Notes under the pieces: model-generated
What the model was told of the DNA's origin: nothing
Database searches by the model: none
Seen by the model: the letters and a program-made list of their open reading frames with translations, nothing else
Made by a program: the position numbers and the translations under genes
In this document: in pieces, positions 7,771 through 61,825 of the stretch
Layout: each line of letters begins with the position of its first letter
Position numbering within the stretch: the stretch's first letter is position 1
Source of the DNA: Escherichia coli
GTDB lineage: Bacteria > Pseudomonadota > Gammaproteobacteria > Enterobacterales > Enterobacteriaceae
Assembly (NCBI RefSeq): GCF_003334255.1
Contig: NZ_QOWU01000001.1
Strand: one strand, 5' to 3'
DNA length: 64,000 nt

Positions 7771-7886
<116 letters not shown>

Positions 7887-50337: not shown

Positions 50338-50466
<129 letters not shown>

Positions 50467-56665: not shown

Positions 56666-59200
56666 TTAATTACTACCAAACATATCCTTGATCCAACCGG
56701 CTACACCGTCGCTGTCTTTCTGCTCTTGCTGAGCAGGTTGCTGTTGCGGCTGTTGCTGCGGCTGAGAAGACTGATCAAACGGATTGCCTGACGGCTGCTG
56801 CTGCATCTCGCTCTGCTGGCACAGCGATTGCGGATCGCTGGTCCAGACCGGCAAGATACGCATGCCACCGCTGCAAACAAAGTTGCCGTCGTAGTCCACG
56901 CCCATATCTGCAATATCTTCTGGCGGAACAAGATTCAGCGGCGTTGGCGTCTGGTTAGCCAGATAACGCTGATAAATCGACATTGCCCCGCTGGCACCAT
57001 ACAGTTTGGTCGGCTGGTTGTTATCACGGCCGACCCAGGTGATGGTCACCGTGCTGCCGTCAATGCCCGCAAACCAGGTATCTACGTTATTGTTGGTAGT
57101 CCCTGTTTTCCCTGCCAGATGCAGGTTCGGGTATTTCGCCCCAAGCTGACGACCCGTACCGCGTTGTACCACCTGCTGCATGGTCCATAGTGTCAGATAC
57201 GCCGCCTGCGCCGGAACAGCGCGTTCCGCCTGCGGGAAGCTCTGATACAGCACTTTGCCATCTTCCGCGATTACCGAACGCAGCGCAGAAAGCGGTGCAC
57301 GGTTACCACCGCTGGCGATGGTCTGGAATGCCTGCGCCACTTCGATTGGCGTTAAGTTCAACGCCCCCAGCAGCATTGCCGGAACCGGATGCAACTGATC
57401 TTTCGGTACGCCCAGTTTAATCCAGGTCTCCGTAACCGCAGGCAGCCCCAGCGCCATCCCCAGATTTACCGTCGGCACGTTCATCGAACGGGTCAACGCA
57501 TCCACCAGCATCACTCTGCCGCTTTCGCTATAACGACGGTCATCATTCTGCGGTGACCAGACCTGGCCATTCGGCTGACGCAGCGCAATTGGCGCATCCG
57601 CAATCCACGTATTCAGACGATAGATTTTCGGCTGGCTTAAGGCCGTCAGATAAGTCGCTGGTTTTGCAAGGGAACCAATCGAACGACGCGCCTGCATCGC
57701 ACGGTTGTAGCCCGCAAACTGCGGCTCAGAACCTCCGACCATCGCACGAACTTCACCACTAAAGCGGTCGACGACCACAATCGCAGTTTCAAGATCGCTC
57801 AACTTACGCTGTTTCTTCAGTGCCGGAATGCCTTCCACGGCGGCTTTTTCTGCCGCGTCCTGGGCCACCGAGTCAAAGGTAGTGAAGATCTTCACGCCGG
57901 AGAGATCTTTTACCTTATCGCCCAGTTTTGCCTGCAGCTCCTGACGCACCAGTTGCATAAAGGCTGGCTGAGGAGAGATCACCCCACCGCGCGGCTGAAC
58001 CCCCAGCGGACGGGCACTCAACATGTCATAGAGTTCTTGATCAATAATCTGTTGCTGTTGCAGCAGACGCAGCACCAGATTACGTCGCTCCAGCGCCAGT
58101 TTTGGGTTACGCCACGGGTTGTAGATGGACGCCCCTTTCACCATACCGACTAACAGCGCCTGCTGGTCGAGGCTTAGCTCTTCTACCGGGCGACCAAAGT
58201 AATACAAGCTTGCCAGCGGGAAGCCGCGGATTTCGTTGTCGCCGCTCTGACCGAGATACACCTCGTTCATATACAGCTCAAGAATACGGTCTTTGCTGTA
58301 ACGCGCGTCCATGATCAGCGCCATGTAAGCTTCGTTCGCTTTACGCCAGTAAGAACGCTCGCTGGAGAGGAACAGGTTTTTCACCAGCTGTTGCGTCAGC
58401 GTACTCGCACCCTGTACCGTGCGTCCGGCGGTCAGGTTTGCCAGCACCGCACGTCCGATTGAGTAGAGACTGATTCCATCATGCTCGTAAAAATGACGGT
58501 CTTCTGTCGCCAGCAAAGTATCCACCAGCAAATCCGGGAAACCACTGCGCGGCACAAACAGACGCTGCTCACCGTTTGGCGAAGAGATCATGGTGATCAG
58601 ACGCGGATCAAGACGGAAGAAACCGAACTGACGGTTGTTCTCCATATTGACGATCGTCGCCAGATGATCGCCATCAAAGGTCAGACGCGCGCGCACCTGT
58701 CCTTCTTTACTGTCCGGGAAATCAAACGGACGGCGAATCATCTCAATGCTGTTGGCCTGCACGGTAAATTCGCCAGGACGGGTCATTTTCGACACCTGAC
58801 GATACTGGGTCGCCTCCAGCAGCTTCACCATCTCGTTCTTGCTGATGGTCATGTCTGGCTCAAGATTGACCATTCGGCCATAAACTGCCGCAGGCAGTTG
58901 CCAGACCTTGCCATCAATACGGCTACGAATTTTTTGATCGAGATAAACGCCGTAAATGGCGATCAGCACGGCAAAAACGATAGCCAGTTTTAGCAGTAGC
59001 CATAGCCAGCCGCGTTTGCCACGAGGCTTACGCCCTTTGCCTTTGCCCTTACCTTTGCGCGGCATCGGTTCTTCATCCTCATAGTCATCATAATCGTCGT
59101 AATCATCGTCATCTTCGTAACGACGACGGCTTACCTTTTGTTTGACCGGACGCGTCGGTTTCCCTTTGCGTCCAATTGGCTCGCGGTCATTCCCGGCCAT
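56666..59200 (-). CDS. mrcB: Penicillin-binding protein 1B (bifunctional glycosyltransferase/transpeptidase)
   Basis: 844-aa product starting [18 protein letters not shown], with an acidic [15 protein letters not shown] stretch and a C-terminal Gln/Pro-rich tail. The track ORF extends 5 codons upstream. Confidence 0.95.
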
Positions 59201-59297
59201 GCTTTTTCTCCGCAATATTCAGGCGCAAAAGCCCGATTTTCTGTTCTTCTGTTACAAGACAGAAGAAGATATCTCTCAAAATTTGTGCTCGATCGGT

Positions 59298-59383
59298 CCC
59301 CTCTCCCTTGAGGGAGAGGGTTAGGGTGAGGGTGAACGTGCGCGCTGATGCCCTCACCCCGGCCCTCTCCCACAGGGAGAGGG
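59298..59383. repeat. 86-bp GC-rich composite palindrome (three stem-loops) between hrpB and mrcB
   Basis: CCCTCTCCCttgaGGGAGAGGG, then GGGTGAGGG-18 nt-CCCTCACCC, then CCCTCTCCCacaGGGAGAGGG. I cannot assign a repeat family by eye. Confidence 0.7.
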
Positions 59384-59395
59384 AGAAAACCAACC

Positions 59396-61825
59396 TTACG
59401 AATACTTTTTCGTCCGTCGCGTCGGTGCAGTATTTGCCGGGTCGTCCGGCCAGACATGTTTGGGATAACGCCCTTTCATCTCTTTTTGCACCTCACGGTA
59501 CGCTCCTTTCCAGAAGGCGCTCAAATCTCGTGTGATTTGTAATGGCCTTTGGGCAGGTGAAAGCAACTCCAGCACCAGCGGCACGCGCCCCTGGGCGATC
59601 GTCGGATTGGTGGCCTCGCCAAACATCTCTTGCATTCTCACCGCCAGCGCGGGCGGGTTATCTTCATGATAACGAATGGCGATCCGGCTTCCCGTCGGCA
59701 CAGTGTAATGCGCAGGCAATTCACTATCCAGACGTTGCTGCATTCCCCAATCAAGTAATCCGCGTAGTGCCTGATAAATGTCGAGTGATTTCAGGCCGCG
59801 TAGTGAATGTACGCCAGTCATATGTGGCAGCAGCCACGTTTCCAGCGCTGCCAATAAACTTTCATCATCAACCGCTGGCCAGTCATATTCCGGCAACCAC
59901 TTTGCGGCGCATAACAAACGCAAGCGTAGCTGTTCCGCTTCCGCCGTCCAGTTGAGCACGCTTAAACCTTTATCACGGATGCCATTAAGCATCGCCTGAT
60001 GCAACTCGTCTTCTGACGGTTTCGCCAGCGGCTGCATTTTCACCGTCAACTGACCGATTTGTAGCCGACGCCAGGCTTTCAGCGTACCTTGCGCGTCATC
60101 CCACTCCACAGTGTCAGACTGCTGTACCAGCTGCGGGCAGCGTTGTACTAACTCATCAATATCGACCAGCAGCGCCAGTAAAATCCGCGCATCCGGCGAG
60201 GCGCTGCCCTGCAATAATAACGGTGCGATCAACCATTCGTGGCGGCTTAGCGCGTCGTTGGCATCGAGCATCGCTCCCATGCCGTTTGCCAGTTGATAGC
60301 GTCCATCTTGCCCACGGCGACGAGCAATGCGATCGGCAAACGCCCCGGCAAGTAGCGGCGCGATAAGCGAACTGTCTGCCTCACCGCCACGTACGTTTAA
60401 GCGTTTTAACAGTTGCTGACTACGTTGCTGCCAGGCTGGTTGATTGCGCGAAAACGCCACGCCCAGGTCACTATTGCCCATCCGTGGCGGCTCTTCGAGA
60501 ATGGCGGCAATTTTTGCCGCGGTAGCAGCTTCGTCGTCGTTCTTCGCGCTAACCAGCATTGCCGCTAAACGCGGATCGTTACCCAGCGCTGCCATTTTTT
60601 GCCCTTGCGCACTAAGCCGTTCACCCTCCAGTGCCCCCAGCATTTGTAACAGACGTTTCGCGGCCAGTAGATTCACTACTGGCGGTTGATCCAGCCAGCT
60701 CATCTGCGCCGGATCGCTGCATCCCCATTGCAGTAATTCCATCAGCAAACCGGAAAGATCGCTTTGTAAGATCTCCGGTTCACTTTGCGCCGCGGCGCGT
60801 TCTGCTTGTTCTTTGGCGATTAAATGCAGGCTGATACCCGGCTCCAGACGCCCGGCGCGCCCGGCACGCTGCGTCATGGATGCCTGGCTAACGCGTTGAG
60901 TAATCAGTCGCGTAAGCCCCGTGCGCGGATCAAAACGCGCCACACGCTCCTGGGCACAATCCACCACCAGACGAATACCTTCAATGGTTAAACTGGTTTC
61001 AGCAATATTGGTCGCCAGCACCACTTTGCGCATCCCTTGCGGTGCCGGGAGGATCGCTTTTCGCTGATCGTTCAGCGACAACGCGCCATACAGCGGGCAG
61101 AGCAATACATCACTGCCGATGCGCGAAGCCAGTTGTTCCTGCACACGCTGAATTTCTCCGACGCCAGGTAAAAATAACAGTAATGATCCGCTTTCCTGAC
61201 GCAGCATTTCAGCGGTGGCTACCGCAACGGCATCGTCAAAACGCTGATGCGCGGGCAGCGGTAAATAACGGCGTTCAACCGGAAACGAGCGCCCTTCTGA
61301 GATGACGACAGGCGCTTCTGGCAGCATTTGCTGCAAGCGGTCGTTGTCCAGGGTAGCCGACATAATCAGCAGTTTAAGGTCATCACGCAGACCTTGTTGC
61401 ACATCGAGTAACAGCGCCAACGCCAAATCCGCCTGCAAGCTGCGCTCATGAAATTCATCAAGGATCACCAGTCCAACACCGCTCAGTTCCGGGTCACGCT
61501 GGATCATGCGCGTCAGCACGCCTTCGGTAACCACTTCCAGGCGGGTATTCGGCCCGACGCAGTTTTGCGCACGCATCCGGTAGCCAACGGTATCGCCTGG
61601 CTTTTCGTTAAGCAGCTCCGCCAGCCGTTGCGCGACGTTACGCGCCGCCAGACGACGCGGCTCCAGCAGGATAATTTTCCCGTTAATGCCGGGATGCGCC
61701 AGCAGTTGCAGCGGCAGCCAGGTTGATTTCCCGGCCCCGGTCGGCGCACTTAATAATACCTGCGGCGCACAATCGAGAGCGGTAAGTAATTCAGGTAAGA
61801 CGGCAGCAACGGGCAACGACGACAC
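59396..61825 (-). CDS. hrpB: ATP-dependent RNA helicase HrpB (DEAH-box)
   Basis: 809-aa product from a GTG start (SSLPVAAVLPELL) with Walker A APTGAGKST and DEFH motif. An in-frame ATG 15 codons upstream at 61870 is an alternative start. Confidence 0.9.
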   Translation of the reverse strand: MSSLPVAAVLPELLTALDCAPQVLLSAPTGAGKSTWLPLQLLAHPGINGKIILLEPRRLAARNVAQRLAELLNEKPGDTVGYRMRAQNCVGPNTRLEVVTEGVLTRMIQRDPELSGVGLVILDEFHERSLQADLALALLLDVQQGLRDDLKLLIMSATLDNDRLQQMLPEAPVVISEGRSFPVERRYLPLPAHQRFDDAVAVATAEMLRQESGSLLLFLPGVGEIQRVQEQLASRIGSDVLLCPLYGALSLNDQRKAILPAPQGMRKVVLATNIAETSLTIEGIRLVVDCAQERVARFDPRTGLTRLITQRVSQASMTQRAGRAGRLEPGISLHLIAKEQAERAAAQSEPEILQSDLSGLLMELLQWGCSDPAQMSWLDQPPVVNLLAAKRLLQMLGALEGERLSAQGQKMAALGNDPRLAAMLVSAKNDDEAATAAKIAAILEEPPRMGNSDLGVAFSRNQPAWQQRSQQLLKRLNVRGGEADSSLIAPLLAGAFADRIARRRGQDGRYQLANGMGAMLDANDALSRHEWLIAPLLLQGSASPDARILLALLVDIDELVQRCPQLVQQSDTVEWDDAQGTLKAWRRLQIGQLTVKMQPLAKPSEDELHQAMLNGIRDKGLSVLNWTAEAEQLRLRLLCAAKWLPEYDWPAVDDESLLAALETWLLPHMTGVHSLRGLKSLDIYQALRGLLDWGMQQRLDSELPAHYTVPTGSRIAIRYHEDNPPALAVRMQEMFGEATNPTIAQGRVPLVLELLSPAQRPLQITRDLSAFWKGAYREVQKEMKGRYPKHVWPDDPANTAPTRRTKKYS

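Follow-up and report, generated by a model that had tools for sequence, protein, structure and literature searches.

In the course of about 30 years, BoxC repeats have received four names; triplex formation, G-quadruplex formation and a role as "instability source" are proposals for their function. In Escherichia coli MG1655, 23 intrastrand-triplex motifs were listed as TMECO, and the motif was equated with BoxC (Bergler 1992) and with the PIT element (Hoyne, Maher and co-workers 2000/2002) (Holder 2015, NAR, PMC4666352). According to an older repeat survey, the original GenBank record contained 33 BoxC features, each 51-59 bp long. Copies of the same family were also designated HPGQ and read as a G-quadruplex-hairpin-duplex switch (Kaplan 2016, NAR, PMC5100583), and the forms HPG1 and HPG2 of that work are the same repeat as BoxC, PIT and TMECO.

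Other dispersed repeats of enterobacteria resemble BoxC to varying degrees. Like BoxC, the REP/BIME elements are short, GC-rich, palindromic and intergenic, both families often occur at the 3' ends of genes, and both can stabilize the upstream mRNA as 3' hairpins, but their consensus differs. REPs have a partner transposase (RAYT) and are bound by IHF, gyrase and Pol I; to our knowledge, neither a partner transposase nor binding proteins have been reported for BoxC. The MITE-like ERIC/IRU elements are comparable to a BoxC pair in size (approximately 110-128 bp with flanks), in being imperfect intergenic palindromes and in their presence/absence polymorphism; however, they display no sequence relationship to BoxC, for which mobility has never been demonstrated and, at the three loci considered here, no target-site duplication was found.

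In this work, we analyzed a palindrome located between hrpB and mrcB in a 64,000-nt stretch of E. coli DNA (hereafter, the window), which a preliminary description had presented as a composite of three hairpins. Our results identify it as a head-to-head pair of BoxC repeats, one of type B and one of type A; it is thus an already known element, and this exact copy appears in two previous papers. We estimate a probability of about 85% that the locus is explained by a dispensable BoxC pair, probably a selfish or neutral insertion, carrying a hairpin that would stop exonucleases.

Structure and identity of the hrpB-mrcB palindrome

In the window, hrpB (59396-61825, minus strand; stop codon TAA at 59398-59396) and mrcB (56666-59200, minus strand; encoding PBP1b) are separated by a spacer of 195 bp. 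Inspection of the sequence and a repeat finder both placed three perfect 9-bp inverted repeats at 59299-59383 in this spacer. The first pairs CCCTCTCCC (59299-59307) with GGGAGAGGG (59312-59320) across the loop TTGA; the middle one pairs GGGTGAGGG (59324-59332) with CCCTCACCC (59351-59359) across an 18-nt loop containing GCGCGC; and the third again pairs CCCTCTCCC (59363-59371) with GGGAGAGGG (59375-59383), across the loop ACA. The stems, arms and loops of the preliminary description were therefore confirmed, and its 86-bp near-palindrome is real, although the paired core spans 85 bp (59299-59383) and base 59298 is unpaired. Furthermore, the repeat finder reported 27-nt inverted arms with 81% complementarity which, together with the perfect 9-mers, make the pair itself a long inverted repeat.

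A BoxC unit consists of one pyrimidine block and two purine blocks, CCCTCTCCC-loop-GGGAGAGGG-loop-GGGTGAGGG. Units were searched with the pattern CCCTC(T/G)CCC - loop - GGG(A/T)GAGGG - loop - GGG(T/A)GAGGG, in which the second loop defines the type (TTA, type A; CCG, TCG or CTG, type B). Two exact matches were obtained, at 59299-59332 (plus strand, TTA) and 59383-59351 (minus strand, CCG), and the same regular expression recovered other MG1655 copies. The mrcB-side half of the palindrome is a type A unit (59299-59333, plus strand; CCCTCTCCC-TTGA-GGGAGAGGG-TTA-GGGTGAGGG-T, with blocks at 59299-59307, 59312-59320 and 59324-59332), and the hrpB-side half is a type B unit (59350-59383, minus strand; CCCTCTCCC-TGT-GGGAGAGGG-CCG-GGGTGAGGG-C, with blocks at 59383-59375, 59371-59363 and 59359-59351). 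Hence, the palindrome is not a composite specific to this locus but two opposed known units: the outer hairpins are the pyrimidine/purine stem of each unit, and the middle hairpin is formed by their third blocks (GGGTGAGGG). Two units opposed in this manner produce a near-perfect palindrome of approximately 85 bp.

Both units have been published individually. Table 1 of Holder 2015 (PMC4666352) lists as no. 1 the type B sequence CCCTCTCCCTGTGGGAGAGGGCCGGGGTGAGGGC (MG1655 164547-164580, plus strand) and as no. 2 the type A sequence CCCTCTCCCTTGAGGGAGAGGGTTAGGGTGAGGGT (164631-164597, minus strand); these are identical to positions 59383-59350 (minus strand) and 59299-59333 (plus strand) of the window, respectively, and their coordinates were verified on the MG1655 record. 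The same two copies are HPGQ 5 and 6, described as "hrpB >>> ... >>> mrcB" (Kaplan 2016, PMC5100583), and the pair analyzed here differs from them in nothing of kind. It agrees with the BoxC family in its three-block build, the inverted pairing of A with B, its intergenic site and its association with local sequence variability, and differs in that its units are perfect-stem variants (CCCTCTCCC, without the mismatch triplet). In both units, 9 of 9 positions form Watson-Crick pairs and 9 of 9 form allowed purine-motif triads (G·G, A·A or T·A), compatible with a class II triplex. Inverted pairs always combine types A and B, both here and in all four other MG1655 pairs (fepB/entC, ygfF/gcvP, alx/sstT and lldD/trmL), a rule also stated by Holder 2015 (PMC4666352).

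The units are separated by a central spacer of 18 nt (TGAACGTGCGCGCTGATG, 59333-59350), compared with 28-29 nt for the homologous spacers of three other MG1655 pairs; at the orthologous site, the elements of Pseudocitrobacter and Lelliottia have the same spacer variant. Conservation within the family reaches past the published 34-37 nt. The type A unit is preceded by the 5' extension GTGCTCGATCGGTC (59285-59298, plus strand; family consensus roughly GYGCACNNACGGTC), a flank that, according to the alignment, also precedes the type A copies of 10 other MG1655 loci, and type A copies are followed on the 3' side by GAACAGGCCNGCAC. The type B unit is preceded by GGTTGGTTTTCT (59384-59395, minus strand), which begins immediately past the hrpB stop codon and so places the core 12 nt from it; the family consensus of this flank ends in TTTTCY, and the alignment likewise revealed it on the 5' side of type B copies elsewhere in MG1655. 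Counting both extensions, the element covers about 59285-59395.

The palindrome corresponded neither to REP nor to an Rfam family. As the preliminary description had noted, it does not match the REP consensus: a search for GCCKGATGCGRCGY-N4-RCGYCTTATCMGGCCTAC with up to 3 mismatches found matches in the window only at 7804-7839 and 50391-50426, and none in the hrpB-mrcB spacer. An Rfam scan of 58900-59800 (E <= 10) returned only sub-threshold eukaryotic miRNA-hairpin models, the best with 29.4 bits against a threshold of 74; these miRNA-precursor matches are expected of any long GC hairpin and were rejected as meaningless.

Distribution of the family in Escherichia coli

The genome-wide search for copies proposed in the preliminary description did reveal a dispersed family. 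Of 5,426 complete E. coli genomes, 5,335 gave matches when the 113-bp element was used as blastn query; the matches amount to 59,712 places (median 11 per genome, range 1 to 26), of which only 43 were located on plasmids. All 12 MG1655 BoxC loci that were fetched sit between annotated genes. BoxC is a dispersed intergenic repeat family of Enterobacteriaceae.

Alleles and local instability in Escherichia coli

Allele frequencies at hrpB-mrcB in the 5,426 genomes were estimated from BLAST coverage thresholds rather than from per-genome alignment. On this basis, the full BoxC pair is carried by about 60% of the genomes, and about 35% have an empty spacer of 93 bp, i.e., 102 bp shorter than the filled allele. 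The empty allele lacks the stretch from just past the stop codon to AAATTTGAGAG, carries extra small indels, and retains the position of the hrpB stop, with TGA in place of TAA. Collapsed and partly deleted forms together account for about 5% of the genomes. These include an allele with a 12-bp deletion removing GGGAGAGGGTTA, and two distinct deletions of 63/64 bp which leave a single CCCTCTCCC-loop-GGGAGAGGG hairpin, one retaining the loop ACA and the other the loop TTGA. Strain Ecol_542 is an example of the empty allele, and DEC9B of the collapsed single hairpin.

The deletion end points fall exactly at direct 9-mer repeats; the 12-, 63- and 64-bp deletions are products of recombination or slippage between these repeats, and the locus is locally unstable. 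The same collapse from a pair to a single hairpin was found at alx-sstT. Instability and a "palindrome effect" were reported for the TMECO motifs (Holder 2015, PMC4666352), and the hrpB-mrcB alleles reproduce both at a much larger scale. The BoxC pair is dispensable at this locus, where it probably behaves as a selfish or neutral insertion. Two open reading frames overlapping the repeat, 59142-59324 (plus strand) and 59187-59393 (minus strand), exist mechanically, as had been noted, and are most likely artefacts, because about 35% of genomes do not have this stretch, one of the deletion alleles shortens it by 64 bp, which is not a multiple of three, and the empty allele is shorter by 102 bp.

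The orthologous spacer in other genera and the possibility of mobility

The orthologous locus was fetched from 80 Enterobacteriaceae species with MrcB as query, and the end of hrpB was recognizable in 70 of them. The approximately 80 bp proximal to mrcB are conserved in all 70, and the stretch from there to the hrpB stop is hypervariable: it is occupied by BoxC, by REP-like palindromes or by terminators, or is empty. Complete BoxC units, one or more, are present in 16 species, with degenerate blocks in 13 more; REP-like palindromes occupy the spacer in Salmonella, most Citrobacter and Leclercia; and in Buttiauxella, Cedecea colo, Citrobacter youngae and Lelliottia nimipressuralis the variable stretch is practically reduced to zero, with total spacers of 78-83 bp. 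Among other members of Escherichia, the empty spacer of 93 bp is found in E. albertii and in Escherichia sp. MOD1-EC7003, and Escherichia sp. E1V33 has the collapsed hairpin with E. coli flanks. At the other extreme, the spacer of Pseudocitrobacter faecalis contains 2.5 tandem BoxC pairs, and that of enterobacterium RIT691, of 509 bp, contains five BoxC units. Between the hrpB stop codon and the conserved block upstream of mrcB lies the only permissive position of the spacer, and this is where the pair is located.

The E. coli element is identical at 101 of 108 positions to the Pseudocitrobacter unit, which has the same orientation, and at 96 of 106 to the pair of Lelliottia V86, which has the opposite one. 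Given these near-identical pairs, the element could be ancient, lost many times and inverted on the way, instead of a recent gain in E. coli; the alternative would be repeated insertion at a site that is permissive or preferred.

Recurrent insertion would be expected if the A-plus-B pair of approximately 110-128 bp were a non-autonomous mobile element of the MITE type, entering in either orientation just past stop codons, with solo units and single hairpins as its decay products. Several observations point in this direction: the type-specific conserved termini reach beyond the triplex blocks, E. coli and Lelliottia have nearly identical pairs at this junction, in opposite orientations, and both have empty relatives (E. 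albertii and Lelliottia nimipressuralis), Pseudocitrobacter faecalis carries tandem units, genomes differ in their number of copies (1 to 26), and collapses of pairs into single hairpins are observed. However, neither a target-site duplication nor a clean empty site was seen at the three BoxC loci inspected. The empty hrpB-mrcB allele, with its extra small indels, shows no direct repeat; at adk-hemH, the whole 155-nt cassette is replaced by an unrelated one of 51 nt; and at alx-sstT, one allele is collapsed to one hairpin and another is unrelated and long. In addition, a partner transposase is not known from the literature considered here, Holder 2015 (PMC4666352) found the motifs linked neither to transposons nor to phages or plasmids, the plasmid-borne places are only those 43 of 59,712, and a CGAGC outer-flank variant, common to the elements of E. 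coli, Pseudocitrobacter and Enterobacter kpr-6, is a hint of vertical descent. Mobility of this type is consequently a tentative and rather unlikely explanation. The more extensive proposal of a still-active MITE-like unit that prefers sites past stop codons, has landed recurrently at hrpB-mrcB and supplies an exonuclease-blocking 3' hairpin we consider doubtful; if true, it would give BoxC both a mechanism of spreading and a molecular phenotype.

Folding of the element and the 3' end of hrpB mRNA

The RNA of the hrpB-sense strand folds with -75.8 kcal/mol (z = -9.2), and folding of the single-stranded DNA gave z of about -5 for both strands. At minimum energy, both strands adopt a single long nested hairpin, with the outer arms paired to each other. 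The palindrome can therefore fold or extrude, as the preliminary description had proposed, but not as three stem-loops: a set of three independent hairpins was rejected.

Intrinsic (Rho-independent) termination was likewise rejected, as the stem is followed by GACCGATCGAGCAC, with no U-tract. No terminator-like site was detected on either strand of 59100-59500, and a promoter and terminator consensus scan of the spacer region found nothing. PIT elements were reported to lack both promoter and terminator activity and to leave RNA polymerase unaffected in vivo (Hoyne & Maher 2002, as summarized by Holder 2015, PMC4666352). The role of terminator for hrpB attributed to the palindrome in the preliminary description is thus contradicted by its sequence and, as far as that summary goes, by the published reporters.

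With regard to RNA stability, which had also been suggested, one published observation applies to this copy. The Term-seq catalog of Adams 2021 (eLife, PMC7815308; supplementary file 1, M63 0.4) contains a curated RNA 3' end at MG1655 164636 (plus strand), classified as 'orphan', with an average of 986.8 reads in M63-glucose cultures. Its printed flank, CCCTCAAGGGAGAGGGGACCG before the end and ATCGAGCACA after it, matches the window, where the end lies at 59294 (minus strand), 5 nt beyond the final paired G of the composite hairpin. It is a weak signal, detected in one of three growth conditions with low reads and absent in both LB conditions. No 3' ends are entered for six other BoxC loci (adk, tauD, zntA, alx, aaeR and lldD) in a lookup by 10-nt coordinate prefixes, which more distant ends would escape, and no Rho region is listed near 164.4-165.0 kb (PMC7815308).

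Steady-state 3' ends located just past very stable stem-loops without a U-tract have been described as the result of exonuclease trimming of Rho-terminated mRNAs (Dar & Sorek 2018). The hairpin beyond hrpB resembles these protective stem-loops in its high stability, its lack of a U-tract and a 3' end a few nucleotides downstream; unlike them, its 3' end is weak and confined to one condition, and has no listed Rho region nearby. By analogy, transcription of hrpB would allow a very stable, U-less 3' hairpin to form from the element, and this hairpin would stop 3'-5' exonucleases and so set the 3' end of hrpB mRNA. We infer such an exonuclease-blocking hairpin here, and, as a third of E. coli genomes do without the element, its effect on the 3' end is more likely an incidental result of a -76 kcal/mol hairpin in the 3' UTR than a selected function. 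The suggestion of an RNA-stability element therefore retains the single Term-seq end, weak and probably incidental as it is.

A selected terminator or mRNA-stability element of hrpB, insulating mrcB from read-through, would accommodate the position of the element 12 nt past the hrpB stop, the strength of its RNA hairpin, the curated end 5 nt downstream of the stem, the lack of any other terminator-like site in the E. coli spacer, and the precedent of U-less stable stem-loops defining the 3' ends of Rho-terminated mRNAs. Nevertheless, about 35% of E. coli and the sister Escherichia lack the element with the hrpB stop at the same position, and Enterobacter and Leclercia carry a separate canonical terminator hairpin after BoxC. 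To this are added the missing U-tract, the reporter assays cited above, in which terminator activity was not reported, and a 3' end that is weak, condition-specific and without counterparts listed at the six other loci. We regard selection for such a function as quite improbable, and favor the dispensable BoxC pair whose hairpin acts on the 3' end by accident. Four sets of data from this locus could assist in designing a decisive test, namely the allele frequencies in 5,426 genomes, the deletions located exactly at direct 9-mers, the repeated presence of BoxC at this junction across many genera in either orientation, and the Term-seq end at the base of the hairpin; none of them alters the classification.

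DNA structure and the mrcB promoter

Each purine arm of the pair reads GGG-N3-GGG-N3-GGG-N3-GGG, which is a canonical G-quadruplex motif. A single-stranded BoxC unit can form a 9-bp hairpin and, under in vitro conditions, also a purine-motif intrastrand triplex or a G-quadruplex. Triplex formation by type A and type B oligonucleotides was observed in vitro by CD and NMR; in vivo DMS footprinting revealed no triplex protection and a duplex-like reactivity (Holder 2015, PMC4666352), and non-B DNA at this locus in cells is therefore hypothetical.

A promoter of mrcB has been predicted by SELEX (Shimada 2014) on the minus strand, with TTGAGA at 59279-59274 and TGTAAC at 59256-59251, separated by 17 nt. 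Since this predicted promoter (59279-59251) lies downstream of the element, the latter is not expected to be part of the mrcB mRNA that would start there. The proximity of both features could still suggest that the element, as a DNA switch (G-quadruplex, hairpin, triplex or cruciform) or as a protein-binding site, regulates the mrcB promoter about 20 bp downstream: the predicted -35 hexamer is 6 bp from the start of the type A extension (59285) and approximately 20 bp from the end of the core (59299), the purine arms are canonical (G3N3)4 motifs, and oligonucleotides change topology in a K+-dependent manner as followed by CD (Kaplan 2016, PMC5100583). Against this, Holder 2015 (PMC4666352) found no association of the motifs with gene class, distance or orientation, the DMS reactivity in vivo is that of a duplex, a third of strains lack the element and the block upstream of mrcB is invariant either way, and no binding protein is known. 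We found no evidence for such control of mrcB, nor any for the protein-binding role that the preliminary description had offered, and a regulatory switch of this kind is very improbable.

A chance origin of the palindrome as an incidental product of the spacer, in favor of which only its short length speaks, is practically nil and was already refuted by the exact match to a published family with tens of thousands of copies across E. coli genomes, as well as by the three-block pattern, present 2 times in the window and 0 times in 100 shuffles, and the 9-mer GGGAGAGGG, with 4 occurrences in the window against 0.19 expected. The z values of the RNA and DNA folds likewise speak against chance.

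The conserved block upstream of mrcB

The mrcB-proximal block (59201-59283, minus strand), as defined by an alignment of 77 species, is conserved across Enterobacteriaceae and is not part of the repeat. Besides the predicted mrcB promoter, it contains a covarying hairpin with arms at 59267-59259 and 59252-59244, whose apical pairs differ between genera yet stay paired. In the alignment, 93.9% of cells are paired, double changes occur in 5 of 9 pairs, and doubly changed cells number 77, compared with 27 +/- 4 in shuffles and 5-42 in slid controls. The hairpin shares positions with the predicted -10 hexamer, and the hexamer lacks conservation in genera other than Escherichia. Either the assignment of the promoter or the question of whether the hairpin acts as DNA or as RNA should be re-examined, and the hairpin itself may deserve a study of its own.

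Conserved flanks and size of the BoxC unit

At the BoxC loci of MG1655 (L002-L012), the conserved flanks of the copies are type-specific and reach past the published triplex motif of 34-37 nt: type A units are bounded by GYGCACNNACGGTC on the 5' side and GAACAGGCCNGCAC on the 3' side, and the 5' flank of type B units ends in TTTTCY. Since these flanks lie outside the triplex motif, the real BoxC repeat unit is approximately 55-60 bp long, in agreement with the old BoxC annotation, and a full pair spans approximately 110-128 bp. The preliminary description had set the hrpB-mrcB element apart from the REP sequences found elsewhere in the window, and this distinction was borne out, with REP consensus matches located on the minus strand at 7804-7839 and 50391-50426 (1 and 2 mismatches).

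Variation of the hrpB-mrcB junction between genera

Among the orthologous hrpB-mrcB loci from Enterobacteriaceae species (L019-L098), the stretch from the hrpB stop codon to the conserved mrcB block (approximately positions 1100-1500) constitutes a hypervariable landing pad between genera. The spacer ranges from 78 to 509 bp. In some genomes the junction is empty; in others it carries between one and five BoxC units, in either orientation, or else palindromes resembling REP or terminator hairpins of canonical form. Tandem amplification of BoxC pairs at the orthologous site was observed in two genomes: the spacer upstream of position 1501 comprises 379 bp with 2.5 near-identical A+B pairs in Pseudocitrobacter faecalis (L052), and 509 bp with five BoxC units in Enterobacteriaceae bacterium RIT691 (L067).

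The Pseudocitrobacter unit is oriented as in E. coli, being identical to window 59285-59397 at 101 of 108 positions, and the pair of Lelliottia sp. V86 (L058) lies at the same junction in the opposite orientation, with 96 of 106 positions identical to the same segment. The E. coli and Lelliottia pairs have in common the loops TTGA, TTA, CGG and ACA, as well as the central GTGCGCGCTGATG.

A different, degenerate single hairpin was found at this site in L022, a contig titled E. coli SCPM-O-B-8794 whose genome is a separate GTDB species representative; it is arranged as gcacgggcagtc-CCCTCGGCCC-tatg-GGGAGAGGG-agaaagcac in the spacer upstream of position 1501. Its flanks run opposite to the E. coli orientation, which suggests an independent history for this hairpin. 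Regarding the alleles with and without the BoxC pair, the empty Escherichia allele has a 10-mer, AAACCAAACC, that is similar to the left flank of the filled allele, GGTTGGTTTT, when the latter is read as its reverse complement. Further, the hrpB stop codon (window 59396-59398, compared with L013 and L017) is TAA in genomes carrying the pair and TGA at the identical position in those with the empty spacer.

Alternative alleles at other BoxC loci

Two unrelated cassettes were observed 3' of adk, in the adk-hemH spacer, among E. coli genomes, namely a 155-nt block with a type A BoxC unit and a terminator hairpin, present in MG1655 (L009) and approximately 54% of genomes, and a 51-nt block, present in O157:H7 and an APEC strain (L099, L100), whose hairpin is a different one. 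The difference is a replacement of the whole cassette, not an insertion. At alx-sstT, two further alleles exist beside the MG1655 BoxC pair (L004 compared with L101 and L102): in one, a deletion between direct CCCTCTCCC 9-mers leaves the pair collapsed to a single hairpin; the other is approximately 217 bp longer, with unrelated GC-rich sequence replacing the pair.

A conserved hairpin block upstream of mrcB

Approximately 80 bp located 5' of the mrcB ATG (window 59201-59283, minus strand) are kept across the 77 aligned Enterobacteriaceae sequences. This block contains a 9-bp stem on the minus strand (59267-59259/59252-59244). Covariation from one genus to another affects the four or five pairs at its apex, as in CTGTC/GACAG, TCACC/GGTGG and CCTCC/GGAGG; 93.9% of the cells of the stem are paired, and 77 are doubly changed versus 27 in shuffled alignments. 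After it comes another small hairpin, CRGGC-N6-GCCTG, which is invariant. The covarying stem overlaps the SELEX-predicted mrcB -10, TGTAAC, which is not conserved beyond Escherichia, and no Rfam match was obtained for the block. This may represent a hitherto undescribed leader or operator structure of mrcB.

A contig titled Chryseobacterium sp. 18061 (L072) carries an MrcB of enterobacterial type, which shares 84% identity with the E. coli protein, and also displays an hrpB-mrcB arrangement and BoxC blocks; the probable cause is that the assembly is contaminated or mislabelled.
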